Position numbers and translations under genes: made by a program. From a virus (lineage: Duplodnaviria; Caudoviricetes), in the IMG/VR virus record IMGVR_UViG_3300020138_000006, positions 16,880-80,879 of that record: a stretch of 64,000 nt of DNA. One strand, given 5' to 3'. This document shows positions 6,077 to 64,000 of this stretch, piece after piece. A model generated the notes under the pieces. It had not been told where the DNA came from. It was given only the letters and a program-made list of their open reading frames with translations, and did no database searches. Positions within the stretch are counted from its first letter, which is position 1. Each line of letters opens with the position of its first letter.

Positions 6077-6849
6077 TGTCTGCGCCCAAGCTTCAGATTC
6101 GCTTCCCGCTCGACGACACCGGTCTGGCGATCTCGCTGTGGGTGTCGTCGACGACGGACAGGGGCTTCTTCGCTCAGCTCCAGAAGACCGAGACGCGCTA
6201 CTCGTGGAACAGGGTCATGGCCACGATGCAGAAGTTCTACGCGCAGGCGGCGCAGGAGCTCAACGAGCTCGCGGTGGAGGAGTTCAAGAAGAGCCGCAAG
6301 CGGCCGGGCGTGTCGACGAAGCGCCTAGAGAAGGCGCTTGTGGATCCGCGCAACATGCGCATCCTCCAGGACGGGTACCGTGTCGGGTATGGCCGGTTCA
6401 TGAAGACGAGTGAGGCGCGCTACTGGCGTCAGATCGACGAGGGCACGACGGTCCATGTCGGCCGCCTGCTTCCGGCCGGACTGTGGGGGGCGTCTCTCAA
6501 CGGCCGTTGGGCGGTGAGTGAGAAGGGCAACCGCTACGCGCTGACGAAGCCGCCGTATGCCCTGCCGGGAAAGTCGACCGGTGGTAAGTTCCAGCCGCTG
6601 TCGACGGCGACCAAGTCAGGCGTCCGCAGCGCGCGAGCGGAGTGGCGCCGTGACGGGGGCGAGGGGAGGTTCCCTCCTCGGCCGAGGATTCGCCGGGAGA
6701 TCGAGGCGGAGCACTACTACCACCGTGCGTATCTGCGGTGGTCGCGCACAAACCGCCCACTGAACCTGCTCGTCGCCGTCATGCGTGCAGAGTTCCGCTG
6801 GACGCAGCCGATCCGCTCGTACGACCAGCTGATGGCGGCCCTGACCTAG
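6076..6849 (+). CDS. Basic neck/tail-completion protein (HK97 gp10-like position)
   Basis: ATG 6076; 257 aa, R/K-rich; YWRQIDEGT segment; positional. Confidence 0.5.
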   Translation: MSAPKLQIRFPLDDTGLAISLWVSSTTDRGFFAQLQKTETRYSWNRVMATMQKFYAQAAQELNELAVEEFKKSRKRPGVSTKRLEKALVDPRNMRILQDGYRVGYGRFMKTSEARYWRQIDEGTTVHVGRLLPAGLWGASLNGRWAVSEKGNRYALTKPPYALPGKSTGGKFQPLSTATKSGVRSARAEWRRDGGEGRFPPRPRIRREIEAEHYYHRAYLRWSRTNRPLNLLVAVMRAEFRWTQPIRSYDQLMAALT

Positions 6850-7373
6850 AGGTTGTGGCTGAACAGGGACTCGGGCACCTGCTGCAGTGCGTCGCGCATC
6901 GTCGCGACCCAGTCGGAGATCTTCTCGCGGCTCTGCGTGGCCAGAGCGTCGCCGATCTTCCAGTCCGCCATGTCGGGATTCGGGCGTTCGGTCCCGTCGC
7001 ACATCCACGACCATGCTTCGACGGTTGCCGCTGCGTCGTGGCGGATCTTCCCGACACCATTCAGGACCGCTGCGGGCGTCGGCTCGTTCAGGCCGTCGAA
7101 CAGGTCCGCGAGGCGCCTCATCGATGGTTCGTTGAAAAGGTCCGGCGCGGCAGGGCTCTCGGTGAGGTACTCGAACAGCGCAGCGTCTTCCACCCTGCCC
7201 TGGAGGGCTTGCGACGAGATAACCATCTGTGTCTGCTGCCGAAAGATGAAGAGGTCCGTGTACTGGACCTGGCTCACGGCCATGTCCGCCCACCGGGCGA
7301 CCTCGTGGATGCTCGCGGGGACCTCGCGCTCGTTCATGCCGACATCTTCGTGCGCGAGGGGACGGCACATCAA
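6846..7373 (-). CDS. Hypothetical protein inverted within the structural operon
   Basis: 175-aa ORF filling the gap between neck and major tail genes; start could be 7373, 7370 or 7337. Confidence 0.6.
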   Translation of the reverse strand: MMCRPLAHEDVGMNEREVPASIHEVARWADMAVSQVQYTDLFIFRQQTQMVISSQALQGRVEDAALFEYLTESPAAPDLFNEPSMRRLADLFDGLNEPTPAAVLNGVGKIRHDAAATVEAWSWMCDGTERPNPDMADWKIGDALATQSREKISDWVATMRDALQQVPESLFSHNL

Positions 7374-7383
7374 GGCGTTGCGA

Positions 7384-7403
7384 TCTCCGCGCTAGCGCAA
7401 AGC
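7384..7403. promoter_or_regulatory. Palindromic operator copy
   Basis: TCTCCGCGCTAGCGCAAAGC, 15/20; between the inverted gene and the major tail gene. Confidence 0.65.
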
Positions 7404-7492
7404 GCTTGCTGACACGGCTACCTCGATGTCGAGTGCACCGGTTGACGACATCGGGCCCGCCCTCGGGCCTAGAGAGGCTTGGAGGTTAGCCC

Positions 7493-23033: not shown

Positions 23034-23632
23034 GCTGTCCCGAAAACGTCGCCTGGGTGCGCAACGAGGACCTCTCGCTGGTCGCGCTCGTCTCTGCCCT
23101 CATCACGTCGCGGGGCGACGCTCTGTCGAGCCCCACCGTCGAGCACGACAAGCACTACGCCAGGGTCAGCGTCGGCCTGGCTCACCTCATTCAGGAGTCT
23201 TACGGCGTCGCCCCTCTGATGCTCGCCTTGGGCCGCGAGGCGGCGGAGGCGCTGAAGCTGCTGGACGGCGAACTGAAGTTCAGCGATGCCGTGCTGTTCC
23301 AGGAGGAGGGTGTCTGGACCTGGCGCTACATCGGCGACGTCGACGACGAGGGCGCCGTCGGCCAGTTCCGCAAGGCCTTGCGCCTCATCGTCCAGGCGAC
23401 CACGTTCAGCGAGGTCCTGCACCTGCACCCTTCTGAGGCCCCTGCCGAGGATCGTGCACTCGTCACGGCGTGGATCAACGAGGTCTGCTCGGTCGAGTAC
23501 CCGTGCAGCCTGGCCGGCCAGATGGCGGCGATCGTCGCCGGGCTCCACGGCCACCTCTACCAGCGCATCGCGCACGCCAGCGAACTGTCCAAGGCGGCTC
23601 AGGACGCCATGGACGAAGGCGGGCAGCCGTGA
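23030..23632 (+). CDS. Hypothetical protein
   Basis: ATG 23030, 200 aa, coupled on both sides. Confidence 0.7.
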   Translation: MSCPENVAWVRNEDLSLVALVSALITSRGDALSSPTVEHDKHYARVSVGLAHLIQESYGVAPLMLALGREAAEALKLLDGELKFSDAVLFQEEGVWTWRYIGDVDDEGAVGQFRKALRLIVQATTFSEVLHLHPSEAPAEDRALVTAWINEVCSVEYPCSLAGQMAAIVAGLHGHLYQRIAHASELSKAAQDAMDEGGQP

Positions 23633-24852
23633 AGCTCTGGGGCCGCAAGGCGGCCACCCACACGACCCAGCCCATCGGCTTCGACGCGATCGACCTGTTC
23701 GCAGGCGTCGGATGGGACGCTGCCGCGCGCGAGCTCGGCATGAACGTCCTCGGTTTCGATCTCGACAAGGACGTCGTCAAGCTCCGCCGTGCAGAGTCCA
23801 TGCCGACCGTCAAGGTCAACCTCTGGGAGTTCCTCCCCAGTGACCTCGTTCTGCCGTTCCGTGGCCTCATCGCCTCGCCGTCGTGCAAGAAGTATTCGGT
23901 CGCGGGCAAGAAGGAAGCCCACCCGGAGCTCGTCCGCATCCTGGCGGCCGTCCCACTCGTCGCCGCGGGAAAGCCGGTGCAGGATGTCCTGAAGGGCATG
24001 GACCCCGAGGCGGCCCTCGTGCTCGCGCCCCTGGCATGGGCTGTCCACCATCGCCCCGAGTGGATCGCGCTGGAGCAGGTCAAGGAGGTCCTCCCCGTGT
24101 GGGAGGCCATCGCCGACGCGCTGCGCGCACGCGGCTACTCGGTCGACACCGGCTTGCTGTCCGCCGAGCAGTACGGCTCGGGTCAGCAGCGAGTGCGCGC
24201 CGTCCTGGTGGCGAACCGCACGACCGAGGTCACGCTGCCCAAGCCGACGCACTCGACCTACTACAACCGCAACCCGCAGAAGCGGGATCCGGGCGTCAAG
24301 GACTTCGTCACGATGGCAGAGGTCCTGGGATGGGACCCGCGCGACCGCGTGGGGTTCGCCCGACGTGCCGACCGAGCCGACTCCGTCGAGATCGATGGCG
24401 CCTTGTACCGCGCCCGAGACCTTCGAGAGGCGGGTCTCCCGGCACAGACGGTGACGGAGAAGGCCCGATCGTGGCAGCGGTTCGTGGCGGGTGACAACAC
24501 GGTCGAGCCGCAGGAGGCCCTGAACCCGCCGAAGGACTCGGACAACGAGCGTCCGGAGTGGCCGTACGTACGTCCGGCCACGACCGTCGTCGCCTCGTTC
24601 CGGCCTGACGTCATCGCGGCGCCGGGCTACCGCAAGCCGGGTGACGGCCCCCGCCAGAACGCACCCGGTTCGGTGCGCGTCACCGTGCAGGAGACGGCCA
24701 GGCTCCAGTCCTTCCCGGACGACATCGACTGGTCGGTCCTGTCCAAGACGGCCGCTCACAAGCTCATCGGCAACGCCGTCGACGGCTGCGTTGCGCGCGC
24801 AGTCCTGCTGTCTGCGCAGGGCATCGATCACACCCAGGAGGACCAGGCATGA
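23629..24852 (+). CDS. DNA cytosine-5 methyltransferase (orphan)
   Basis: Motif I DLFAGVG, IV SPSC, VI LEQV, VIII QQRVR, IX RLQSFPD, X IGNAV. Confidence 0.9.
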   Translation: MKLWGRKAATHTTQPIGFDAIDLFAGVGWDAAARELGMNVLGFDLDKDVVKLRRAESMPTVKVNLWEFLPSDLVLPFRGLIASPSCKKYSVAGKKEAHPELVRILAAVPLVAAGKPVQDVLKGMDPEAALVLAPLAWAVHHRPEWIALEQVKEVLPVWEAIADALRARGYSVDTGLLSAEQYGSGQQRVRAVLVANRTTEVTLPKPTHSTYYNRNPQKRDPGVKDFVTMAEVLGWDPRDRVGFARRADRADSVEIDGALYRARDLREAGLPAQTVTEKARSWQRFVAGDNTVEPQEALNPPKDSDNERPEWPYVRPATTVVASFRPDVIAAPGYRKPGDGPRQNAPGSVRVTVQETARLQSFPDDIDWSVLSKTAAHKLIGNAVDGCVARAVLLSAQGIDHTQEDQA

Positions 24853-26116: not shown

Positions 26117-26442
26117 GCGGGGAGGTCTGGGACGAGTACGGCGCCCGGTGGGGCGAGGTCATCGAGACCGCCTCCGGATCGCTGATCGTGCACAAGGCGG
26201 AAAGCTGCAAGCTCTTCGACTTCGCATGCTGTGTCCACAATCCCTCTGACCACCCGCTCGCGACGGCGCAGCTCAACTGGCGCAGCGACCGTGACCTCAT
26301 GGAGCGGATCTGCTCGCACGGCATCGGGCACCCAGACCCGGATGACATCGCGTTCCGGCGGTGGGTGCTTGCCAAGCCGGCCGAGTGGGTATCGGCGCAG
26401 GCCGTGCATGGCTGTGACGGCTGCTGCAGGGGCGCGCGATGA
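26113..26442 (+). CDS. Cys/His-rich metal-binding protein
   Basis: CCVHNPSDH...ERICSHGIGHPDPD...HGCDGCC, a pattern I recall from actinobacteriophage proteins. Confidence 0.75.
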   Translation: MSGEVWDEYGARWGEVIETASGSLIVHKAESCKLFDFACCVHNPSDHPLATAQLNWRSDRDLMERICSHGIGHPDPDDIAFRRWVLAKPAEWVSAQAVHGCDGCCRGAR

Positions 26443-27362
26443 GGATCCGCCAGTCCGACCTCGCCTCGTTCCAGCGCTGCGCCCAGCAGGTCAAGCTGAA
26501 GGAGCAGGCGAAGGAGCAGGGGTGGCACGAGCCGATCCTTTCCGCGACGGCCGCCGGAACGGTCATGCACTACGCCTTCCAGACTCTGCAGAAGCTCCAT
26601 CACGAGGGCCGAGAGGACGCACTCGATGTCGCTATCGCGACTCTCCAGCGTTACTGGGACCCGAGCAACATCTCGATGATCTCCGAGGGCCCGGTCGACG
26701 TCTGGATCGCGAACGACACCTACCACGGGATGCTTCGTCGACACACGGAGAACCTGAAGGCCGCTGATGCCTGGATCCGCAGGGACAAGTCGATCCTGCT
26801 TTCGATCGAGCACACCTTCGACGTGCCGATTGTGATCGACGGCGAGGAGCACACCCTTCACGGAACTGTCGACCGTCTCTGCTTGCGCATGATCTCGGGC
26901 AGGCCGGTCCTCGGGGTCGATGACCTGAAAACCTGGCGGAAGAAGCACTACTACCTGGACTCCAACACTCAGGCGACCGTGTACTCGTACGCCTCGTTGC
27001 AGCCCGAGTTCTGGAACTCCTTCTACGAGGACGAGACCGTCCTGGAGTCGTTCCATGAGGTGGTCGAGCGGCTTTCCGCCCGGGGTCTCCAGCTCTACCA
27101 GGGCCTCAGGAAGGACCTGACGGTCATTCCCCGTAGGGCGCGGTTCCTGCGGGCGTGGGACGGCTTCGAGGTCAACGACGCGGGGTGGCGCGAAGAGCCT
27201 CACTTCGCACGGATGCGGGCACAGCTGCGCGAGTACATCGCCGCCCGTCGTGCGGGCGTCTACCCGCTGACGGTGGACGGGTCCATCTGCCGTTTCTGCC
27301 CGTTCAACCTTGGCATCTGCGGCGACGTACCCGGCCCGCAGCGCCAGGAGGGCATCGCATGA
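26439..27362 (+). CDS. Cas4/RecB-like PD-(D/E)XK exonuclease
   Basis: N-terminal SDLASFQRC, GTVMH, HGTVDRL, DDLKT, QATVY, C-terminal CRFCPF..GIC. Confidence 0.85.
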   Translation: MRIRQSDLASFQRCAQQVKLKEQAKEQGWHEPILSATAAGTVMHYAFQTLQKLHHEGREDALDVAIATLQRYWDPSNISMISEGPVDVWIANDTYHGMLRRHTENLKAADAWIRRDKSILLSIEHTFDVPIVIDGEEHTLHGTVDRLCLRMISGRPVLGVDDLKTWRKKHYYLDSNTQATVYSYASLQPEFWNSFYEDETVLESFHEVVERLSARGLQLYQGLRKDLTVIPRRARFLRAWDGFEVNDAGWREEPHFARMRAQLREYIAARRAGVYPLTVDGSICRFCPFNLGICGDVPGPQRQEGIA

Positions 27363-27631
27363 ACGACCAGATCGCGGCGCGCACCGGTGGCCTGAATGTC
27401 ACCTATGCCGAGTTCGAGGAGGCTCTGTGGCGCCGCCACTACGCCTCACGGTCCATCTCGGTCGGCGAGCGCGAGGCCCGCATCCAGGAGCTCATCGCCG
27501 CATACCTAGCCGAGGGCGAGCTCGAAGACGCTCTGCAGGCGCTCGCGGTCGAACTGGTCCTCTACCGCAACGACATGCTCACGACACCTATCGCATTCGA
27601 TCTGACCGAGAAGAACCCGGAGAAGGACTGA
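27359..27631 (+). CDS. Hypothetical protein
   Basis: ATG 27359, 90 aa, coupled. Confidence 0.7.
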   Translation: MNDQIAARTGGLNVTYAEFEEALWRRHYASRSISVGEREARIQELIAAYLAEGELEDALQALAVELVLYRNDMLTTPIAFDLTEKNPEKD

Positions 27632-28845
27632 TGGCGCTCGTTATCAAGAGTGCCGGCCTCGATGACTACCTCGACGAGGCCGGCGGCACGACCAACCTGA
27701 AGGCACTCATCCTCGGGCGGCCTGGAAGCGGCAAGACGCGTTCGAGCGCGTACTGGTCCAAGCCGCTGCTGATCGACTGTGAGCGCAGCCGTTCCGTCGT
27801 CGCCGACCTCGGGATGCCCTACGTCGAGGTCCTCAGCGAGGCCGAGGTCGACGAGTTCATCCGCGAGCTCGGCAAGTGGACGCGGGACAAGAAGTCGGGC
27901 AAGGAGGTCGCCTACGAGACCCTCGTCCTCGACACGGTCGACGGCCTGCAGGACCGGCTGGTCGCCGCGTATCTCGCCAGGACGGGCAAGCAGAAGCTCG
28001 ACGCGATGGGTGGCGACTACGACGCCATCAACGGGCCGGTCGAGCGACTCATCAACGCTCTGAAGGACTCGCCGTTCAACGTCATCGTGAACGTGCACCT
28101 GAAGGAGGTCGGCCAGTTCGTCAAGAGGGGCGAGACGGCGACGGCGGCCCTGGGCGAGGACACGATCCGCACGGCCCAGTCCTGGGGGATCGCGCTTCGG
28201 GGTGGCATCCGAGAGAAGATCCCTGGCTGGTTCGACCTCGTCGGGTGCATCGAGAACTCGTGGGGTCTGAATGGGACCGAGAAGATCGTCAACCGGCACA
28301 TCCGCTGGCAGCCCACGCCCGAACTCCCGATCCTGAAGGACCGCCTGTACGCGTTCCCTCGTAAGACGCCGGTGAACTTCGAGAGCGCCGACTACGAGCG
28401 CCTGGTCGGCTACATCAAGGCGAAGTCGGAGCGGATCAGACCGACGGCGGTCGTCGAGGAGATCGGCGAGCCGGACAAGGCGGTCGGGCCCGACATCAAG
28501 AGCGGCCCGGTCTCGCCGAACCCGTCGGGCGTGCTGCCGAAGCCGCGCCTCCCCAAGGCCGAGCCCGCCGAGAAGCCCGCCGAGAAGCCTGCCGAGGGGG
28601 CTGCTGAGCAGGCGGCCAAGGCGTCCGAGCAGGCGCCGGTCGAGAAGGCCGTCGGGCAGGTCTCCGAGTCACTCGGCGGCGAGGTCGTTGCCGTCGAGTC
28701 GAGCTGGGAGGAGCGAGTCGAGGCCGTCGAGTCGGTCGATGCGGCCCACGAGCTGTGGAACCAGGCGTACGCAGCGGGAGCACTGACCAGCGATCTGAAG
28801 GCGGCGATCATCATGCGCGTCGCCGCGCTCAACAAGAAGTCCTGA
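27631..28845 (+). CDS. AAA_24/Sak4-like ATPase (recombinase)
   Basis: Walker A GRPGSGKT, LLIDCE, Walker B LVLDTVD; sits between exonuclease and SSB-like gene. Confidence 0.8.
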   Translation: MALVIKSAGLDDYLDEAGGTTNLKALILGRPGSGKTRSSAYWSKPLLIDCERSRSVVADLGMPYVEVLSEAEVDEFIRELGKWTRDKKSGKEVAYETLVLDTVDGLQDRLVAAYLARTGKQKLDAMGGDYDAINGPVERLINALKDSPFNVIVNVHLKEVGQFVKRGETATAALGEDTIRTAQSWGIALRGGIREKIPGWFDLVGCIENSWGLNGTEKIVNRHIRWQPTPELPILKDRLYAFPRKTPVNFESADYERLVGYIKAKSERIRPTAVVEEIGEPDKAVGPDIKSGPVSPNPSGVLPKPRLPKAEPAEKPAEKPAEGAAEQAAKASEQAPVEKAVGQVSESLGGEVVAVESSWEERVEAVESVDAAHELWNQAYAAGALTSDLKAAIIMRVAALNKKS

Positions 28846-38625: not shown

Positions 38626-40311
38626 TCACGCGGCGTGATGACGCAGGTCAAGCAACTGAGACACCGTGTGGATAACGGCGAAGTCCCCCTCCGGACACGA
38701 CTTATCCACACCACCCGAGGCCAGGGCTTCCGCGAGGAGGCTCTGGCCTTCGTGGTTGTAGATGAGGCGCAGTCCGAGGCCGGCGTAGACCTCGGCCTTC
38801 CGCTCGGGGGTCGCCGTGCGCAGCAGGCCAGCCATGCCACCCACCCGCTCGATGAGCTCGGCCACCTGCTCGGCCGAGAGGGCGTCCTGGGGGCACGACG
38901 TGTCGGCGATGCGCCGCTTCAGATCAGCCACCTGCGCCTCACGCTCCGCCAGCGCCTTCGTGATGGCGTCGGAGATGGTGCCGGATTCGATGACGGACAC
39001 CAGGTTAGAGACCTTGTCCTGGGCGTCCCGGAGATGCTTGCGCAGGAGGCCGAGCCCTGCTGGTGGCTGTGCAACCTCCTGCGTGGAGGCCAGCCACTCG
39101 GGGTCAGCCAGGGTGTTGACGATCCAGTCGTCGACGACCTTCTCCAGCCGGTCGGCGCTCACCGAGACGGTCTTTGGGTGCTGAAGGTCAGCGGGAAGGG
39201 AGCGACGGCCCCGGGTGTCGCAGCGGTAGAGGACTCCCCAGGGGCGCTTCTCTGCCTGCATCCGGTGCTCGCACGCGGCGCAGTAAAGCATCCCGCGCAT
39301 CGGGTAGGTGTTGACGGTGGTGCGTGGCTTGCGGCTCCCGGGTGCGCCAGGGTGCGCGAGACGGTCTTGCACGGCGGCGATGGTCTGTTCGTCCACGAGG
39401 GCTTCGTGCGTGCGCTCAGCGGGCCGTACCCAGCCTTCCTGGCCCTTCCAGCGCATCCGCGTCTCGTACCCGGCGGCGATGTCGTCGAGGTCCAGGAGTC
39501 GCTCGAACTTCTCCTGCTTCCCCCAGACGCGGGTGCCGGAGTAGGTGGGGTTGGCGAGGATGGCCCGCACGGCGCTGTGCGACCAGCCTCGGGGGTCCCG
39601 GTGGGAGTTACGGGCCCGGTCGTGCTGGGACGGGGATGGGATGCCTTCGGCGGTCAACAGGTCGGCGATCCCACGGAAGCCTGTGCCGGCGATGTAGAGG
39701 TCGAAGATGCGCGTCACGACGGTGGACGTGACTGGGTCCGGCGCGAGCTTGTGTGCGCGCTGCCCGGAGGCGGCCTTGGCTGGGTTCGGGTGGGGCCCGG
39801 CGTCGACGAGCATGTACCCGTAGGGTGGGCGACCGCCGAGGTGCCGATCGGTTGTGGCGGCGAGGGCTTCCATCGAGGCTCGGGTGCGGATGCGGATGCG
39901 GGAACGCTCGCCCTTCGCCATCCCGCCGAACATCGTCATCATCATCTCGTGCAGGTCGGAGTCGGGTTCGACGAGGCCTCCGACGTCGGGGATGAACAGC
40001 GAGACCCCGTGGTGGGTCAGCAGGGGGAACGTCAGGGAGAACTGGTTGCCGTAGAAGGCACGCTGGGGTTCTCCGACGACGACACCGTCGAACCGACGGT
40101 CAGCACGTGCTGCTTCCGCGAGGAGCTCGGCGGCTTGGGGGCGCCTCTTCCACGGGATGGAACGCGACTGCCCGATGTCGAAGAACTCGACGCTGACGGC
40201 ATGCCCGAGGGACCGTACGCAGTCCAGGGCTCGTCGGATCTGCCATTCGCGGGAGGCTTCGGGGTCCTGTGCGTCTTCCGTCGACACGCGGCCGTAGAAG
40301 GCGAGGTCCAT
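38626..40311 (-). CDS. int: Large serine recombinase (integrase)
   Basis: YGRVSTED catalytic Ser motif, recombinase domain (GGRPPYGY), Zn ribbon CAAC...YRC, coiled coil; 561 aa. Confidence 0.95.
   Translation of the reverse strand: MDLAFYGRVSTEDAQDPEASREWQIRRALDCVRSLGHAVSVEFFDIGQSRSIPWKRRPQAAELLAEAARADRRFDGVVVGEPQRAFYGNQFSLTFPLLTHHGVSLFIPDVGGLVEPDSDLHEMMMTMFGGMAKGERSRIRIRTRASMEALAATTDRHLGGRPPYGYMLVDAGPHPNPAKAASGQRAHKLAPDPVTSTVVTRIFDLYIAGTGFRGIADLLTAEGIPSPSQHDRARNSHRDPRGWSHSAVRAILANPTYSGTRVWGKQEKFERLLDLDDIAAGYETRMRWKGQEGWVRPAERTHEALVDEQTIAAVQDRLAHPGAPGSRKPRTTVNTYPMRGMLYCAACEHRMQAEKRPWGVLYRCDTRGRRSLPADLQHPKTVSVSADRLEKVVDDWIVNTLADPEWLASTQEVAQPPAGLGLLRKHLRDAQDKVSNLVSVIESGTISDAITKALAEREAQVADLKRRIADTSCPQDALSAEQVAELIERVGGMAGLLRTATPERKAEVYAGLGLRLIYNHEGQSLLAEALASGGVDKSCPEGDFAVIHTVSQLLDLRHHAA
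38666..38711. mobile_element. Putative attP within integrase 3' end
   Basis: 10-bp inverted repeat GTGTGGATAA/TTATCCACAC around AAGTCCCCCTCCGGACAC (38681-38698), which has tRNA 3'-end architecture; symmetry centre CC at 38688-38689. Confidence 0.78.
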
Positions 40312-42703: not shown

Positions 42704-42921
42704 CCCTTCTCTCGGGCGAGGTTCATCACGGCCTCGACGATCGGGCCGGTATCGATGTCCGGGGCCGCGTTGTCGATCGCCTCGGCGATCTCCTCACGGA
42801 CCCTCTTGCGCCGCCGCAGCGCGGCGGTGTGCTTGAAGGTCGGGAACCTCTCCTCGACCAAGTCTTCCGTCCACTCGGTGGACGAAGGGACGATCCCCGC
42901 GTTGAACGGCTCGCGGCCCAT
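42694..42921 (-). CDS. Hypothetical protein
   Basis: 75 aa, coupled to ruvB. Confidence 0.65.
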   Translation of the reverse strand: MGREPFNAGIVPSSTEWTEDLVEERFPTFKHTAALRRRKRVREEIAEAIDNAAPDIDTGPIVEAVMNLAREKGWK

Positions 42922-43937
42922 CAGTCGGCCGCCAGTTCCATCGCGCGATCGAGACCCTCAGGGGTGAGCTCCCGGCCCTGAGCGCAGATCCGGATGTACC
43001 CCTTCTGCAGGAGCAGCTTCTCGGTGTGACGCGGGAACGTCGGCTCACCGAGCGCCTGTGCGATCGTCTTCTCGCCGGCACGTCCTGACGGGGAGATCGC
43101 CAGGACACTGAGGAACTCCTGCGCGGTGCGGTCGAGACCGTCGTGCGTCAGCTTCGACCAGGCGAACATCTTGTCCATCGGGTAGCAGTTCGTCACCCAG
43201 GAGTCGACCGGCTGCGGGTAGTCGAGGATCGAGTCCCGCAGGATCCGGACGAGCTGGGTGATGACGCGAGGGTTCTTGTTCGACGCCGAGACGATCGCCT
43301 CACGGTTGAACTCGCCAGGCGGCTGCAGCCCGACCTCGCGGAACAGCCGACGGCCCATGAGGTCGACGATCTTGTCGGCCTCCTCGTCCGTGTACGACTC
43401 CAGTACGGGCTTCACCGTGAACCTGGACAGCACCGCCTCGGGCAGCTTCTGCGCGTCGGTCGTCGCCCCGATCACCGTGACCTTCGGGACGGAGTGCACA
43501 CCGGCGGGTGTGACGATGACGCCGTCCTGGAGGAACGACAGGAGCCACTCGGACTTGGCGCGACCGCCCGAGACCATGAGGTGGATCTCGTCGAGGAAGA
43601 GGATGTCGCCGTCCTGCATGGCGCTGAGGGCGCGCAGTGCGTCGTTGACGTCGACGGCGCCCTGGAGCTCGGCCAGGCCGACGTCCAGGTCCTGTGCGAT
43701 GAGTCGCACGAGCGCGGACTTGCCGATGCCGGCCTGGCCGGAGGCGATCAGCGTGTGGTCCATGCGGGTCTTGCGGATCTTCGCGGACCGTGCTGCCGCT
43801 CGCAGGAAGGCCTTCGCCTCGGACTGTCCGACGTAGGCGTCCCAGGTGCGGGGGTAGTCGGTGCCGTCGAAGAGGGCGTCGCCACGCTTGACCGTGGACG
43901 CTGCTCGCGCCGCGAGGCGCTCTCGCATGCTCGCCAT
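42921..43937 (-). CDS. ruvB: RuvB-like Holliday junction branch-migration AAA+ ATPase
   Basis: YVGQ, DHTL, GQAGIGKS, FLDEIH, IGATT, SRF, NPR, GLD...LLQKGYI....GRELT across the full length. Confidence 0.88.
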   Translation of the reverse strand: MASMRERLAARAASTVKRGDALFDGTDYPRTWDAYVGQSEAKAFLRAAARSAKIRKTRMDHTLIASGQAGIGKSALVRLIAQDLDVGLAELQGAVDVNDALRALSAMQDGDILFLDEIHLMVSGGRAKSEWLLSFLQDGVIVTPAGVHSVPKVTVIGATTDAQKLPEAVLSRFTVKPVLESYTDEEADKIVDLMGRRLFREVGLQPPGEFNREAIVSASNKNPRVITQLVRILRDSILDYPQPVDSWVTNCYPMDKMFAWSKLTHDGLDRTAQEFLSVLAISPSGRAGEKTIAQALGEPTFPRHTEKLLLQKGYIRICAQGRELTPEGLDRAMELAAD

Positions 43938-45444: not shown

Positions 45445-46905
45445 CTACGTCTGCCGCATGATGTCGCGGACCTGGGAGACGTCCGTCAGGTCCGCGACCG
45501 TCCGAACGTCGTCAGAGAGCTTCGCGAGCATGTCCGGGCGCCCGCCCCACCCGGAAGTGACGTAGACGCCGTACACGTGCACAGACAAGCGCTTGCGGGT
45601 CTCGTTCCACTCGTCGAGGAACGAGATGTTGCCGCCGTCGCCGTCGGTGATGAACACGATGTCCGGGCGGGACGTGCTCGACTCCTTGACGATGTCCAGG
45701 GCCCGCCGCAGCGGCTTGTTGAACTGCGTGCCGCCGTTGATGAAGCCCTCGGCCATGTCGAGGACATGGTCACGGACCATGCGCCCGCCCGGGAAGGAGA
45801 ACTCGCGGAGCTGGTTGTGGTCGCTGCCGAACCCGATGTAGTGGAAGTCGCGCTTCTGACGACCGGCCTGGTCGAGCAGGGCGAGAGACAGGCCCTTGGC
45901 CCACATCTCACCCGCGCCACTCATCGAGCCGGACTCGTCCGCGACGACCACGATCGGACCCTTGCCCTCCCGCTCCCTGCCGCGCAGCTCCTTGACAAGG
46001 AGCCCGCGATCGACGAAGCGACGCCAGAAGTCGTCCTCCGTCTCCGGGGTTGCGAGGTTGACCATCTCCTGTGTCGTCAGACGCATGAGGTCGTCCCCGA
46101 GCTCGACACCGACCGTCTCATCGGCGCCGTCCGTGGAGCGGCGTCGGTACTCGGCTGACGCCAGCGCACGGAAGGCGCCGATGAGAGAGGCGAACTTGCG
46201 GAGCTTGTCGCTGGACAGTCGCTTCGCGAGCGCTGCCCGGTCGGCGAAGTTCATCCGTTGCAGGTCGCCCGCGTCGACCCCGTACGAGCTTGCGGCCTGC
46301 TGCTGCTCGTCGAGCTCCTTCTCGGCGTCGTTGATGGCCCTGCGCAGCCCGCTGCGGCTCGCTGCCGACTGCGCCTGCGCCTGCTCCTGAAGATCCTCCA
46401 GGGCCTGTTGGGCCTCCTGGGCCGCCTGGTCGGCAGCCTCCTGCTCCTCCTCGGAGGTCGCGTTGTCGGCTGCCTCGCGAGCGGCCTCGACGGCCTCCTG
46501 AGCCGCCTTGGCCCGTTCGCGGAGCTCGCCAGCACGCTCCAGGGCATCCCTGAGCGCCGGCTCCAGCGCGAGGAGTCCCGCCGCCGAACCGTAGTTGTCC
46601 GAGACGGTGTACTCCCGCAGTCGCTCCAGCTCCGGCAACGAGGCGATGTCCTCGGCCACCTGTCGGTTCGGCAGGTGGGTCGCCTTCATCTCCTCGGGCG
46701 ACCGAAGGGATGGCCCCCGCTTGGCCAGGAGCTGGAAGACGTCGTGCGCGAAGTCCTCCGCGTAGTCGTACTTCGCTTGCAGGCCCTTGACCGTGTCGTT
46801 GAGCTTCTCGGACTGTTCACGGACCTCGTCCCACATCGCCCGGTCGAACCGGTCGGTGGGGACGGCGTCCGTGTGCTCCTGCTCCGGGTCGAAGAACCCC
46901 CACAC
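45445..46905 (-). CDS. VWA-domain protein (ViaA/CoxE-like)
   Basis: GTG 46905; MIDAS DESGSMSG, GGTQF, DIVFITDG; N-terminal coiled coil. Confidence 0.88.
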   Translation of the reverse strand: MWGFFDPEQEHTDAVPTDRFDRAMWDEVREQSEKLNDTVKGLQAKYDYAEDFAHDVFQLLAKRGPSLRSPEEMKATHLPNRQVAEDIASLPELERLREYTVSDNYGSAAGLLALEPALRDALERAGELRERAKAAQEAVEAAREAADNATSEEEQEAADQAAQEAQQALEDLQEQAQAQSAASRSGLRRAINDAEKELDEQQQAASSYGVDAGDLQRMNFADRAALAKRLSSDKLRKFASLIGAFRALASAEYRRRSTDGADETVGVELGDDLMRLTTQEMVNLATPETEDDFWRRFVDRGLLVKELRGREREGKGPIVVVADESGSMSGAGEMWAKGLSLALLDQAGRQKRDFHYIGFGSDHNQLREFSFPGGRMVRDHVLDMAEGFINGGTQFNKPLRRALDIVKESSTSRPDIVFITDGDGGNISFLDEWNETRKRLSVHVYGVYVTSGWGGRPDMLAKLSDDVRTVADLTDVSQVRDIMRQT

Positions 46906-46906
46906 G

Positions 46907-48058
46907 TCAGAACTCCTTGACGGAGTCGACCGGGATGCCGAGGTAGCCGAGGGCAACGGCTCGGATGTCGCGGACGACGACCTTGACCTGCTTGGCCGTC
47001 ACGGAGTCGGGGGGGAGCTTGTCAGCCTTCTGCCACAGGAGCGTGGCCTTCCCGTTGGCCTCGGTGGCAGCCCCGAGGAGCTTGTCGCTGGCCTCGCCCT
47101 TGCGGGCCTTCAGGTTGGCCAGGATCTCGTTGGCGTCGTCGAGTAGCTCCAGAGCCTCCTGCTCGACAGGAGCGGCGACCCCGAGGATCAGACGCTGGAC
47201 CTTCTTGATCTGCTCCAGGTCCTCCCAGAGCGTGTGCTGCAGGACGCCGAGGTCGTCGGCCTGCGTCTGGTTTCGGCCGGCGAGCCAGGCGTTCGCCTTG
47301 ACGACCGACAGGCTCTTGCGCAGGCGCCGGTCGGAGACCTGCATCCCAGCGTCGCGCAGCGCGTTGCGGACCGTCAGGAGTCCGTCGAGCGTGGCGGCGG
47401 ACACCGCGACCTCCTGGACCTCCTTGGTCGCGTCCTGGACCTCGGAGAAGAGCACCTTGGTGTGCCCGATGGCGCTGGGGTCCTGGTCCATCAGTGCGAT
47501 GAAGTTGGAGTCGGACGAGATGTAGTCCACCTGGACTCGCAGGAGCAGGCGGTCCCACATCGCCGCCGCGTCCTCGGACTCGCCTGCCGGGTGCTCGTTC
47601 GACGCGGCGAGGAGCGTGTGCAGCGGGATCGGCTGGGCGCTGCGGCCGTTCGCGACCTCGTGCTTGACGCGCTCGTTCGTCGCCGCGAGCAGGTCATGCC
47701 CGAGTGTGGGCGACGCCTTGCCGAGCTCGTCGAGGAACACGATGTCGGCCGTGGTGAGGAAGCCCTCGTCGCGTCGGCGGAACTCGCCCTTGTCGCGCAG
47801 GAGCGGCAGGTCCCACGGCCCGAGGACCGCCTGGTCCGGTCGGTTCTTGGACAGGAGCTGCTCGAAGTAGGTCGCTCCGACGAAGCGACCGGCGAACTCG
47901 CGGACGAGCTTGGACTTGCCGGTGCCCGGGGGGCCGATGATGAAGCCGTGCTCGCGACTGAGGACGGCGAGGAGCATGACGTCGATCGCCGACTCGCGCT
48001 CGTAGAACTGCTCGTTGAGCTCGGTGCGGATCTGGTTCAGCGTGCTGGCGGTGCTCAC
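46907..48058 (-). CDS. MoxR/RavA-like AAA+ ATPase
   Basis: FYERE, GPPGTGKS, VFLDE.GKA, AASNE, DRLLLR. Confidence 0.9.
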   Translation of the reverse strand: MSTASTLNQIRTELNEQFYERESAIDVMLLAVLSREHGFIIGPPGTGKSKLVREFAGRFVGATYFEQLLSKNRPDQAVLGPWDLPLLRDKGEFRRRDEGFLTTADIVFLDELGKASPTLGHDLLAATNERVKHEVANGRSAQPIPLHTLLAASNEHPAGESEDAAAMWDRLLLRVQVDYISSDSNFIALMDQDPSAIGHTKVLFSEVQDATKEVQEVAVSAATLDGLLTVRNALRDAGMQVSDRRLRKSLSVVKANAWLAGRNQTQADDLGVLQHTLWEDLEQIKKVQRLILGVAAPVEQEALELLDDANEILANLKARKGEASDKLLGAATEANGKATLLWQKADKLPPDSVTAKQVKVVVRDIRAVALGYLGIPVDSVKEF

Positions 48059-49175: not shown

Positions 49176-50075
49176 TCAGTAGACGGGAAGGGCGAGGAGC
49201 TGGTCGACCGTCGCCGCTGTGAGCGGGAGGTCTGTGCGCTCGCCCTTGAAGACGGCCATGCGAAGCTTGTTGTCGAAGGTGCGGTTGAGTGCGTGGATCT
49301 CCACGGGGAACATCTCGCCGTTGTCCAGCCGGCCTCGAAGCTGGTCCTCCTGCCGGGAGTCCCAGCCGGTGCCGACGCGGCCGATGGGGACCGGCCCGTC
49401 GTAACCCATGACGGCCAACTCGATCGCGAGACCCTTGCGAGCCTCCTTCGCGTAGCCGAGTGCGATGGCGGTCAGTGACCGGACAGTCTTGAACTTGACC
49501 CAGGACTCGGCTCGCTTCCCGGGCAGGTAGATGCCGTTGCGCATCTTGCAGATGATGCCCTCGCCGCCGTCGCTGACGACCTGCTGCCAGAGGTCGAGGA
49601 TCGCTCCGGACTGCTTGATCGGTCGGATGTTGCGACGTCGTCCAATGACGTTGCGCATCAGCAGGTGCCGAGTGCGCAGCGGCTGCTCCATGAGGGAGTT
49701 GCCACCGGCCATCAGCAGGTCGAACGCCACGAAGTAGCACGGGTTGGCCTTGGCGGCCATCTTGAAGCCGCCGGTCTGCTTGTCTCGTGTGGCGACGGTC
49801 GAGAACAGCCCGTCACGCGCGACGAGCTCGCCGTCGAGGACGAGCGAGCCCGGGAGTCGGAGGTTGTGCAGCTCGGGAAACTTCTCGGTGATCTCCTTGC
49901 CGTTCCGGTTGTAGAGACGGTTCAAGCCACCCTCCGCGTAGAGGATGGCTCGGATTCCATCGAGCTTTTCTTCGGCCACCCAGTCCTTCCGGGAGGCGAG
50001 CTCGGTGAGCAGGATCGGTCTTCGGTTGCTCTGCCCGGTGCTGGGGACCGCTAGCATCGGGGGGATGGGCTTCAT
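49176..50075 (-). CDS. ATP-dependent DNA ligase (LigD/LigC ligase-domain type)
   Basis: PMLA, EEKLDG (adenylated Lys), LDGELV, FVAFDLL, EGIICK, Y.PGKR..SWVKFK, OB domain. Confidence 0.92.
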   Translation of the reverse strand: MKPIPPMLAVPSTGQSNRRPILLTELASRKDWVAEEKLDGIRAILYAEGGLNRLYNRNGKEITEKFPELHNLRLPGSLVLDGELVARDGLFSTVATRDKQTGGFKMAAKANPCYFVAFDLLMAGGNSLMEQPLRTRHLLMRNVIGRRRNIRPIKQSGAILDLWQQVVSDGGEGIICKMRNGIYLPGKRAESWVKFKTVRSLTAIALGYAKEARKGLAIELAVMGYDGPVPIGRVGTGWDSRQEDQLRGRLDNGEMFPVEIHALNRTFDNKLRMAVFKGERTDLPLTAATVDQLLALPVY

Positions 50076-50079
50076 CGGT

Positions 50080-50160
50080 TCAGTCCCGGGCCATCAGCCA
50101 GAAGCACCAGGCGGCGAGTGCGCAGTAGCCGAGGATCACGACTGCCTTGGGCCAGGTCAC
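50080..50160 (-). CDS. Small membrane peptide
   Basis: MTWPKAVVILGYCALAAWCFWLMARD, GTGA-coupled. Confidence 0.5.
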   Translation of the reverse strand: MTWPKAVVILGYCALAAWCFWLMARD

Positions 50161-50351
50161 GTCAGCACCTCCCACTTGCTCAGGAGCCGCTGCACGCGGT
50201 GCAGCTCGGTGATCGGCACCATGTAGTGCGACGGGACGAACATCGGTCGGCCCTCCTGCACGATGCCGTTGTGGACGGCGATGATGATCGGAACCGTCTC
50301 CTCCTGCGGCTCGGTGAGCTCGGAGATGTCGTCTGGAGCCTCGTCGGACAT
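50157..50351 (-). CDS. Hypothetical protein
   Basis: 64 aa, AAGGAGG RBS. Confidence 0.65.
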   Translation of the reverse strand: MSDEAPDDISELTEPQEETVPIIIAVHNGIVQEGRPMFVPSHYMVPITELHRVQRLLSKWEVLT

Positions 50352-50354
50352 GTT

Positions 50355-50513
50355 TCAGACCTCCTTCGATCGTCGCTGCCGGTCCGCGAGTCGGGACTGG
50401 CAGGCGGGTTCGTTGCAGACGTGCGCGACGATGCGCGCCTCGTTCGCGGGGATGTAGATGGCGACCTTGGTCAGCGGGCGCTGGACCGTGCCGCAGAAGT
50501 AGCACTGAGTCAT
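50355..50513 (-). CDS. Small zinc-binding protein
   Basis: ATG 50513; CYFC...HVCNEPAC. Confidence 0.6.
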   Translation of the reverse strand: MTQCYFCGTVQRPLTKVAIYIPANEARIVAHVCNEPACQSRLADRQRRSKEV

Positions 50514-50698
50514 GAGCGCTTCACCTGGATCCAGCAGTCGTAGAAGGGCGCCGACGATGAACCGTCGGTGTAGTGCCAAACGATCTTGCCGACCCGCGCA
50601 GTGGACACGTGCGACACGACCGCGATGTCCTCTCCGACGGAGACGAGGATGTCGCCCGCACGAGCCTTCGAGGCTCGGATCGTGATGAGCGGACTCAT
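50510..50698 (-). CDS. Hypothetical protein
   Basis: 62 aa, coupled. Confidence 0.6.
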   Translation of the reverse strand: MSPLITIRASKARAGDILVSVGEDIAVVSHVSTARVGKIVWHYTDGSSSAPFYDCWIQVKRS

Positions 50699-51474
50699 GC
50701 CGCCACCACCGCTCGGAGCTTCGCCAGCAGATCGTCGACGTCGGACGTCGGCAGGGCTACGTCATCGGCCCGTGCGACGACCTCGCGACCCTTCAGGCGC
50801 TCGGCCATACGGGCGTCCGTGTCGTCGAGGTAGGACGACGGGTCGTAGTCAGTGACCGAGGACGGCATCGCGAGGATCTGCTCGGCGAGCGAGACCATCT
50901 CGGGGTTCTCGGTGAGCTCCAGCTCGGGAGCCTCCCGCAGCGTCGACCCGCCGGTGCGCTCCTGGAAGACGAGGACCTGGCCGACTGCGCGCAGGCGGAA
51001 CTGCCCCAGCGCCGACCGGGGGGTCCAGCGGGCCATGAAGGCCGTCTCGGGGTGGGAGCGGACGAGCGCGAGGAGCGTCGCGTACGTCGTCTCGTGACCC
51101 TTCTCGGGGACGAGGAAGTACGTCTTCTCCCCGACGCCGGTCAGCACCTCCACCTGCTCGGCCGGGTGCGCGAGCACGTTCGCTCGCTTCTTGAACTCGG
51201 CACTGACCTCGGTGAGGACCTTCTCGTCCTCTTCGTTCAGGACGACGAGCCCGCCGTCGACCGGACGAGCCTTCTTCAGCTGCTGGTAGGGGACCTCGCC
51301 GCAGTGCGGGCACACCCTCGGCTGGCGGATCTGCACGGCCTCGTGGCCGGTGTCGCAGACGGTGACGTTCGTGGCCGACTTCGGCCGGCTCTCCACGGCG
51401 GAGAACATCGAGACGGACGCGGAGATGAGTCCGAAGTTCAGGGCGACGCCGGAGGCGACGCTACGGGGTGCCAT
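50695..51474 (-). CDS. ku: Ku-like DNA end-binding protein
   Basis: LNFGLISASV.MFSA, IRQPRVCPHCGEV.Y..L.K, TYFL.P, Y..LL, LA.QI, YDPS.Y.D, V.DLLA.L. Confidence 0.85.
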   Translation of the reverse strand: MAPRSVASGVALNFGLISASVSMFSAVESRPKSATNVTVCDTGHEAVQIRQPRVCPHCGEVPYQQLKKARPVDGGLVVLNEEDEKVLTEVSAEFKKRANVLAHPAEQVEVLTGVGEKTYFLVPEKGHETTYATLLALVRSHPETAFMARWTPRSALGQFRLRAVGQVLVFQERTGGSTLREAPELELTENPEMVSLAEQILAMPSSVTDYDPSSYLDDTDARMAERLKGREVVARADDVALPTSDVDDLLAKLRAVVAA

Positions 51475-51491: not shown

Positions 51492-51683
51492 TCAGTCGCT
51501 CTTGATGACGATGCGGTAGATCTCGTCGAGCAGCTCGGTCGCGTAGGTCTCGTGCTCGCTGAGGACCTCGTCGAGCTTGGTGAGCTCGGCCCCGCCGGTG
51601 TAGTCGTACATGTTCGCCGTCCAGGGCTCTTCGGTTTCGGTGGCCCTGTCGTTGTCGTCCACGACGATCTCGTAGTACGTCAT
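51492..51683 (-). CDS. Small acidic protein
   Basis: ATG 51683, 63 aa. Confidence 0.65.
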   Translation of the reverse strand: MTYYEIVVDDNDRATETEEPWTANMYDYTGGAELTKLDEVLSEHETYATELLDEIYRIVIKSD

Positions 51684-63928: not shown

Positions 63929-64000
63929 ACGCGCCGTCGCCCGGCACGCCCCCCGGTTATTCGAACACGTGTGCGAGCTCCTGCTCTCGGGAACGGCAGA

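Follow-up and report, generated by a model that had tools for sequence, protein, structure and literature searches.

A conserved Ku and LigD-type ligase gene pair in an uncultured temperate phage lineage with apparently site-specific, near-blunt genome ends

The mycobacteriophages Omega (cluster J) and Corndog (cluster O) encode a Ku protein that, together with the LigD of the host, circularizes genomes with 4-nt overhangs, according to the account of Pitcher et al. 2006 given in PMC4351075 and PMC12848934. Phage Mu Gam is a Ku-family end binder that protects linear phage DNA (PMC1378119) and, as Bhattacharyya 2018 is cited in PMC8136500, can promote end joining with a host ligase. In Streptomyces, LigC and a single-domain LigD are ligase-only ligases of nonhomologous end joining (NHEJ) (Hoff et al. 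2016, PMC5124664). Here we describe a Ku gene (positions 50695-51474, minus strand) and an ATP-dependent DNA ligase gene (49176-50075, minus strand) in one leftward gene run of an uncultured 81-kb temperate phage, the hosts of which are high-GC bacteria. The window analyzed, 64,000 nucleotides with a G+C content of about 67%, comprises bases 16880-80879 of the 80,879-bp IMG/VR virus record IMGVR_UViG_3300020138_000006. We designate the phage genome G000, and positions refer to the window unless stated otherwise. To our knowledge, the only phage Ku proteins studied so far (those of Omega, Corndog, and Mu Gam) borrow a ligase from the host.

Comparison between this locus and the described systems revealed that (i) the phage Ku, as in Omega and Corndog, is encoded in a long leftward arm, is 27-32% identical to its counterparts over the full length, has the same C-terminal DVxDL(L/V)AKL helix and CxxC motif, and belongs to a genome whose ends appear to be defined and to have a very short overhang, with the gene of the large terminase subunit (TerL) displaced from the left end by about 13-16 kb, a layout known from Corndog as well (PMC4351075); (ii) unlike the cluster O and J representatives, which have no PF01068 ligase anywhere and rely on host LigD, this lineage has its own ligase gene downstream of Ku, neither TerL nor the remainder of the genome is related in sequence to that of Omega and Corndog, the overhang is apparently about 1 nt rather than 4 nt, and Ku has no basic C-terminal tail; (iii) the Ku gene lies beside a gene for an ATP-dependent ligase of the LigD ligase domain (LigDom) type, as in the bacterial Ku-LigD systems (Mycobacterium tuberculosis Rv0937c/Rv0938; Bacillus subtilis YkoV/YkoU), and the best matches are M. 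tuberculosis (Mtb) Ku (8v53 and 9i91) and Mtb LigDom (1vs0), but neither the phage gene nor the genome has a polymerase or phosphoesterase domain, both proteins score well below the NCBIfam equivalog cut-offs, and the module is viral and located in a lytic-arm operon; (iv) a stand-alone ligase domain without a polymerase domain (PolDom), for which a partnership with Ku in high-GC actinomycetes is known or has been proposed, is also found in Streptomyces LigC/LigD, but those are cellular genes not located in an operon beside ku, and the phage ligase scores better on the LigD-type model than on the LigC model (142 versus 80 bits); and (v) Mu Gam, by contrast, has no dedicated phage ligase, and the phage Ku matches the bacterial Ku models PF02735 and TIGR02772 and not a Gam model.

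The reading that we prefer, the case for which is evenly poised, is that a Ku homodimer and the LigD-type ligase form a self-contained two-component pair, without polymerase and phosphoesterase, that recircularizes near-blunt phage ends. An earlier note made from the sequence of the window had suggested that the phage could circularize short or noncohesive ends independently of host LigD. The comparisons bear this suggestion out in part: the pair is conserved, Ku retains the C-terminal helix, and the site-specific, near-blunt appearance of the ends fits the circularization of short or noncohesive ends, whereas independence from host LigD would be a consequence of the preferred reading. The participation of the small proteins encoded between the two genes is not supported.

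The Ku protein and the ligase

The phage Ku (259 aa; ribosome-binding site GAAAGGAG) consists of a β-barrel/bridge core and a C-terminal helix (DVDDLLAKLRAVVAA). It matches the Pfam family PF02735 (E = 4.8e-12; 46.6 bits, cut-off 25), PHROG 4873 “Ku-like DNA end binding” over the full length (E = 5.8e-19), and TIGR02772 (E = 4.9e-19; 68.8 bits, under the NCBIfam equivalog cut-off of 150), and a profile of the phage Ku clade matches residues 11-264 of Mtb Ku (E = 7e-16). The AlphaFold2 (AF2) model of Ku was built from 15 relatives, with a predicted local distance difference test (pLDDT) score of 70.5. A Foldseek search with this model retrieved the B. subtilis and Mtb Ku proteins first (E = 3e-11 to 3e-10; 9vnq, 9i91, and 8v53) and Ku70/80 next. 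Judged by its sequence, the phage Ku is a divergent member of the bacterial Ku family.

The C-terminal helix of the phage Ku (DVDDLLAKLRAVV) is a close match to that of Mtb Ku (DVSDLLAKLEASV) in the alignment. In Mtb Ku, the helix residues E246, V248, S258, and K260 bind LigD and stimulate ligation (PMC13717202). The phage segment DVDDLLAKLRAVVAA aligns with DVSDLLAKLEASVKA of Mtb Ku and with the Ku proteins of Catdawg and Baka, whose partner is host LigD; D248, L249, L253, and A255 are invariant. On this alignment, the phage Ku keeps the minimal C-terminal region that binds LigD in Mtb. The Lys-rich C-terminal tail present in its relatives is absent from the phage Ku. Within residues 40-58 (window 51300-51357), C40, H44, C55, and C58 are invariant in the phage Ku clade and may form a zinc site; of this candidate site, only the CxxC is common to the Ku proteins of M. 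tuberculosis, Catdawg, and Baka.

The ligase (299 aa) is composed of a nucleotidyltransferase domain and an oligonucleotide/oligosaccharide-binding (OB) domain only, as in LigDom, and its motifs I-VI are intact. It matches PF01068 (E = 4e-31), and its best NCBIfam model is TIGR02779 NHEJ_ligase_lig (E = 2.5e-41; 141.9 bits, under the cut-off of 227.75); the best non-LigD ligase models, the dnl1 superfamily and PRK07636, score 100.7 and 101.8 bits, respectively. Among PDB sequences, it matches the ligase domain of Mtb LigD best (1vs0, E = 5.5e-18), and the cellular ligases listed are at most 36% identical to the phage ligase. The motif residues are K37, D39, G40, and R42; D81, G82, and E83; F118 and D119; E172, G173, and K177; K194 and K196; and R272 and R280. 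When 35 homologues were aligned, no variation was seen at K37 or at the core residues of motifs I, III, IIIa, IV, V, and VI, and almost none at K196 (motif V) and R280 (motif VI). The AF2 model (pLDDT 94) has a compact two-domain nucleotidyltransferase and OB fold.

The LigD polymerase model TIGR02778 finds nothing in the 80.9-kb genome, and the phosphoesterase domain PF13298 has no match in the genome at E ≤ 0.1; the primase of the phage is of the DnaG/DnaB type and not an archaeo-eukaryotic primase. The earlier note had named a Ku homolog and a 299-aa KxDG ligase without the LigD polymerase and phosphoesterase domains. The former is confirmed by the Pfam, PHROG, and fold matches and the latter by the PF01068 match and the KxDG motif (K37-L-D-G40), and the lack of both domains holds for the gene and for the entire genome.

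The phage ligase clade has features of its own, that is to say, a conserved N-terminal segment PSxGxSNRRP (window 49986-50045), an OB domain that is about 25 aa shorter, through a deletion, than that of cellular LigD, and 8 conserved last residues, QLxxLPxY (window 49176-49200). A clamp- or Ku-binding peptide was considered for the QLxxLPxY end, which is modeled with high confidence (pLDDT of about 88), unlike a disordered tail of low confidence.

A search of about 5.8 billion proteins revealed 15 relatives of Ku (52-87% identity) and about 28 relatives of the ligase (38-65% identity), all of which are metagenomic. We compared 5 related IMG/VR contigs (L002, L003, L004, L005, and L006). Ku is followed by the ligase on the same strand and in the same order in all 5 of them (Ku 51-62%, ligase 55-65% identity), and the pairing is therefore more than chance. 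The genes between Ku and ligase vary from phage to phage, and the gap ranges from a stop/start overlap (L005) through 0.3 kb (L004), 0.8 kb (L003), and 1.1 kb (L002) to 4.8 kb (L006).

Among cultured phages, the only matches to Ku were 79 records of mycobacteriophages from clusters J and O, at 27-32% identity, and matches to the ligase were found only in Rhizobium, Sinorhizobium, Bacillus, and haloarchaeal viruses. No PF01068 ligase was found in the Ku-bearing representatives Catdawg and Baka, and no Ku was found in PPF1 and phiLM21, which represent the phages with a LigD-type ligase. Our literature search found no paper describing one phage with both Ku and ligase. In PPF1 and phiLM21, both temperate, the ligase gene has a moron-like position at the integration end or close to it: that of the Rhizobium phage PPF1 (L012; 2830-3876) lies beside the annotated attP and integrase gene, and that of the Sinorhizobium phage phiLM21 (L013; 2890-3882) is the last gene before the record end.

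The genome ends

The right contig end (...AACGGCAGA; 63992-64000) is located at the center of a conserved cos-like motif, AACGGCAGGTC. We compared it with the circular assemblies G001 and G003, the provirus G002, and a second linear contig, G004. At an internal site, G001 matches the first 100 nt of G000 with 81% identity from position 2 onward, although the proteins of the two phages are only about 60% identical. In the alignment of the G000 junction, formed by joining its ends, with G001 and G002, AACGGCAGGT is invariant at the exact junction, and G003 has 9 of these 10 junction bases (ACGGCAGGT). The junction motif as a whole is intact in G001 and G002 and has 3 mismatches in G003, and it lies 13-16 kb upstream of TerL in all 3 genomes; no intact junction motif was found in the 2 linear contigs. 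On either side of the junction are conserved boxes, CCC(G)GTTAtTCGAA and TTCGAtTAACGGG, which together constitute an imperfect inverted repeat. The conserved box on the right side, CCCCCCGGTTATTCG (63949-63963), pairs in this way across the junction with TTCGATTAACGGG at genome positions 35-47, which is outside the window.

G004, which comes from another sample, ends with ...TAACGGC and has the same C-run and GTTAGTC box upstream. In the 935x run of G000, the start of the Logan contig, at position 4, coincides with that of the JGI contig, and both assemblies stop at the same site. The 2 independent linear contigs G000 and G004 stop in the same conserved motif (AACGGC/A/GGTC), which argues for site-specific physical termini. 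When contigs of the 3 runs containing the locus were aligned to the left end, X2 (35.9 kb) and X3 (6.1 kb), which come from 2 other samples, were found to run across it with the motif intact, the 30 bases before G000 position 2 being G000 80848-80877. The ends of G000 are therefore joined in those samples, in which the DNA was probably lysogenic or replicating.

The terminal bases of G000 that do not fit the junction, namely a left-hand T and a right-hand A or AGA, would be products of A-tailing or adapter read-through at true DNA ends. The physical right terminus would be at AACGGC(AG), the last 1-3 bases probably being A-tail or adapter remnants. After removal of the off-junction bases, no missing junction bases and no terminal repeat longer than 1 nt were found at the G000 ends, which points to an overhang of about 1 nt (range 0-2). 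The end type, which the earlier note had left to be determined, thus appears site-specific and near blunt as read from contig termini rather than from sequencing reads.

Other end structures were considered and rejected. The “direct terminal repeats” of G001 (48 bp) and G003 (123 bp) are at nonhomologous positions and hence are assembly overlaps; hairpin telomeres were ruled out by a junction that is not palindromic, protein-primed ends by the absence of inverted terminal repeats, a long terminal repeat by ends that share no repeat, and headful packaging by the common stop site of both assemblies of the 935x sample. TerL had 2 matches in the phage collection, an uncultured metagenome-derived Caudovirales sequence (35% identity) and a weak partial match in a cultured Microcystis phage, and no informative Pfam or PDB match; therefore, the terminase did not reveal how the DNA is packaged. 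In the 102,678-bp contig of G004 (C1:82797-86702), TerL matches in 3 pieces (residues 1-71, 66-396, and 395-539) within one 1304-aa frame, which looks like 2 intein-type insertions. A hairpin-forming box, CGATGCC...GGCATCG (genome positions 81-97, L007:81-97), about 80 nt inside the left end, is conserved in G001 and G002 and may belong to the packaging signal.

Operon layout and genome context

The earlier note had described one leftward run with 4 tiny open reading frames (ORFs) between Ku and ligase, and reading of the minus strand gives exactly 4. ORF 1 (62 aa; 50510-50698) has an ATGA overlap with the Ku stop codon, no family match, and no homologue in the relatives. ORF 2 (52 aa from its ATG; 50355-50513) has 4 cysteines (CxxC...CxxxxC) and is zinc-ribbon-like, and ORF 3 (64 aa; 50157-50351) has an acidic N-terminus and the ribosome-binding site GAAGGAGG; each has a homologue only in L002. 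ORF 4 (26 aa; 50080-50160), hydrophobic and resembling a membrane peptide, has a GTGA overlap with ORF 3 and ends 4 nt before the ligase ATG. Since the genes from Ku to ligase are linked by ATGA/GTGA stop-start overlaps or by gaps of 4-16 nt, they constitute one translationally coupled string, within which neither a sigma-70-type promoter nor a terminator on the coding (minus) strand was detected.

The 4 small ORFs were also examined as accessory factors, which the earlier note had thought they might be, and such a conserved role is not supported. Only 2 of the 4 have a homologue, in L002 alone among the relatives, and in L005 the Ku stop codon overlaps the ligase start codon. As they are not conserved across relatives, the tiny ORFs are not obligate accessory factors.

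Directly upstream of Ku, a 63-aa ORF (51492-51683, minus strand), the ATG of which overlaps the stop codon of a 207-aa gene (ATGA), has no family match and is not kept in the relatives. In L006, the most distant relative, the position directly upstream of Ku is occupied by a 388-aa gene (6307-7473), whose N-terminal sequence suggests a possible DNA polymerase III beta clamp; Corndog likewise has a clamp gene near Ku.

Past the ligase, the conserved backbone continues on the minus strand with a MoxR-type AAA+ ATPase (PF20030; 46907-48058), its conserved partner, a von Willebrand factor A (vWA) domain protein (45445-46956; the assignment comes from weak Pfam hits, all under the gathering score), a DUF6744 protein (PF20529; 44389-45372), and a RuvB-like AAA+ protein with RuvB_N and RuvB_C (42921-43937). 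The conserved order is thus Ku, ligase, MoxR, vWA, DUF6744, and RuvB-like.

The long leftward arm begins at the right genome end, and the rightward arm contains the terminase, tape-measure and tail, endolysin, and replication genes. A large serine integrase (561 aa; 38626-40311, minus strand) identifies the phage as temperate, for which a circle is needed before integration. In the proviral relative G002 (L010; L011:10921-12579), the serine integrase gene extends as far as the record end, and its orientation relative to its neighbors is opposite to that in this phage. The rightward arm also contains genes for a PD-(D/E)XK nuclease (307 aa) followed by an AAA_24 ATPase (511 aa) (26439-28845), which may be a phage recombination pair, and a C5 cytosine methylase gene lies at 23470-24852.

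The locus was found in 3 “ant metagenome” runs dated 2018. The locus had no megablast match among 50,697 phage records, and no cultured phage is alike at the DNA level. A search for a prophage relative in 185,579 species genomes, using the Ku alignment and the cos motif, found nothing, and scans of viral contigs with the ligase alignment and the left-end box returned the same relatives only. A scan of metagenome contigs with the 17-base left-end box gave 37 matches, 36 of which were chance matches without the core and one of which was the contig of G001 itself.

Proposed circularization of the phage genome and alternative roles

In the preferred reading, the terminase would cut concatemers at AACGGC/A/GGTC, and the overhang of the resulting defined ends, about 1 nt, would be too short for annealing. 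After injection, the leftward arm would be transcribed from its right end off the still-linear DNA, yielding Ku and ligase. Ku would then thread onto the ends, protect and bridge both, and recruit the ligase, probably via the conserved C-terminal helix, and the ligase would seal both strands without gain or loss of nucleotides, restoring the exact cos junction. The circle would then replicate or be integrated by the serine integrase. Counted downstream from the right end, the Ku and ligase genes are 9-13 kb away, within an arm that can be transcribed from linear DNA, and the junction is identical across divergent relatives, which fits exact restoration of cos by a ligase. Because the phage is temperate and its attP and integrase are internal, a circle is obligatory for integration. 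The overhang length, the timing, and the role itself are what we infer from these observations.

Several points weigh against this reading. The weakest link is the end structure, which comes from the termini of 2 assembled contigs and from one bridging contig instead of reads; trimming or extension of ends by an assembler could make the overhang appear shorter than it is, and the opposite end of G004 has no left-end motif. The PolDom takes part in the recruitment of LigD by Ku (PMC5124664) and is absent here. The LigD ligase domains characterized so far favor a 3'-ribonucleotide at the nick (PMC8656161), and, with no polymerase domain, there is nothing here to supply it. Of the 3 Mtb LigDom residues that contact Ku, 2 (D522 and K579) are not kept, the aligned positions being P and L, so the contact between Ku and ligase is likewise one that we infer. 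Both proteins fall under their NCBIfam equivalog cut-offs. In addition, the linkage of Ku and ligase could be general synteny within one lineage, as MoxR, vWA, DUF6744, and RuvB are equally syntenic. A complex prediction for 2 copies of Ku and the ligase, made with alignments, gave ipSAE values of 0.13-0.14 (mark 0.32) and was not used as evidence either way. The fuller claim that the termini of the lineage are site-specific and essentially blunt (about 1 nt), and that at each infection an exact cos junction requires the Ku and the polymerase-less LigD-type ligase of the phage itself, is put forward tentatively, as one that may well not hold.

The synteny of the whole backbone, which extends beyond the pair, would also be expected if the 2 proteins had independent roles and were neighbors by arm synteny, with Ku acting as a Mu Gam-like cap against host exonucleases (AdnAB/RecBCD) and the ligase as a general nick sealer in phage replication and recombination. 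End protection of the Gam type is established for a phage Ku homologue (PMC1378119), other genes (5 kb) part Ku from ligase in L006, and the nuclease and AAA_24 ATPase genes suggest that the phage has recombination functions of its own. We nevertheless regard independent roles as unlikely: the ligase is nearest to the NHEJ (LigD-type) model (142 bits versus 100.7 and 101.8), Ku keeps the helix that recruits a ligase, the stop and start codons of the 2 genes overlap in one relative, and near-blunt ends would still require a joiner.

A role in counter-defense, in which the pair would reseal double-strand breaks made by restriction enzymes, CRISPR, or other host nucleases, is compatible with the circularization of near-blunt ends. 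Taken as the explanation of the pair, we find it distinctly unlikely, since homology-free rejoining of random breaks would often be mutagenic or misjoin fragments and the coincidence with noncohesive termini would be left unexplained; speaking for it are the position of the pair in the long leftward arm that begins at the right genome end, the C5 cytosine methylase elsewhere in the genome, which shows restriction pressure, and the known interaction of host NHEJ with phage infection (PMC12848934). Lysogenic conversion, by which the prophage would provide NHEJ where the host has none or too little, such as in desiccated or stationary-phase cells on the cuticle of ants, is very improbable, since the genes are 10-13 kb away from attP, midway in a long, coupled operon of the lytic arm, with no promoter of their own and no minus-strand terminator detected, even though the phage is temperate and comes from ant metagenomes and a moron-like gene for a LigD-type ligase is found next to attP in cultured temperate Rhizobium/Sinorhizobium phages.

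Phage Ku proteins, phage ligases, and bacterial Ku-LigD are already known; what is new is a conserved, phage-borne pair of Ku and a ligase-only LigD tied to apparently noncohesive, defined termini. The conserved terminus motif provides a concrete candidate cos site for an uncultured phage lineage, and the link to the genome ends makes this case of Ku and ligase testable. If the fuller claim given above is true, the pair would be a natural minimal two-protein kit for blunt-end joining. The absence of the mutagenic polymerase and phosphoesterase domains suggests that this form of NHEJ is adapted to rejoining ends exactly. So compact a pair would be useful for closing linear DNA and for repairing Cas9 cuts in bacteria without NHEJ. 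Many bacteria lack NHEJ, and a phage carrying both parts would be free of that of the host. The Omega/Corndog model would also extend to ends with practically no cohesion, and, should the fuller claim hold, this lineage would be the first virus that needs a self-encoded, faithful NHEJ machine in its life cycle.

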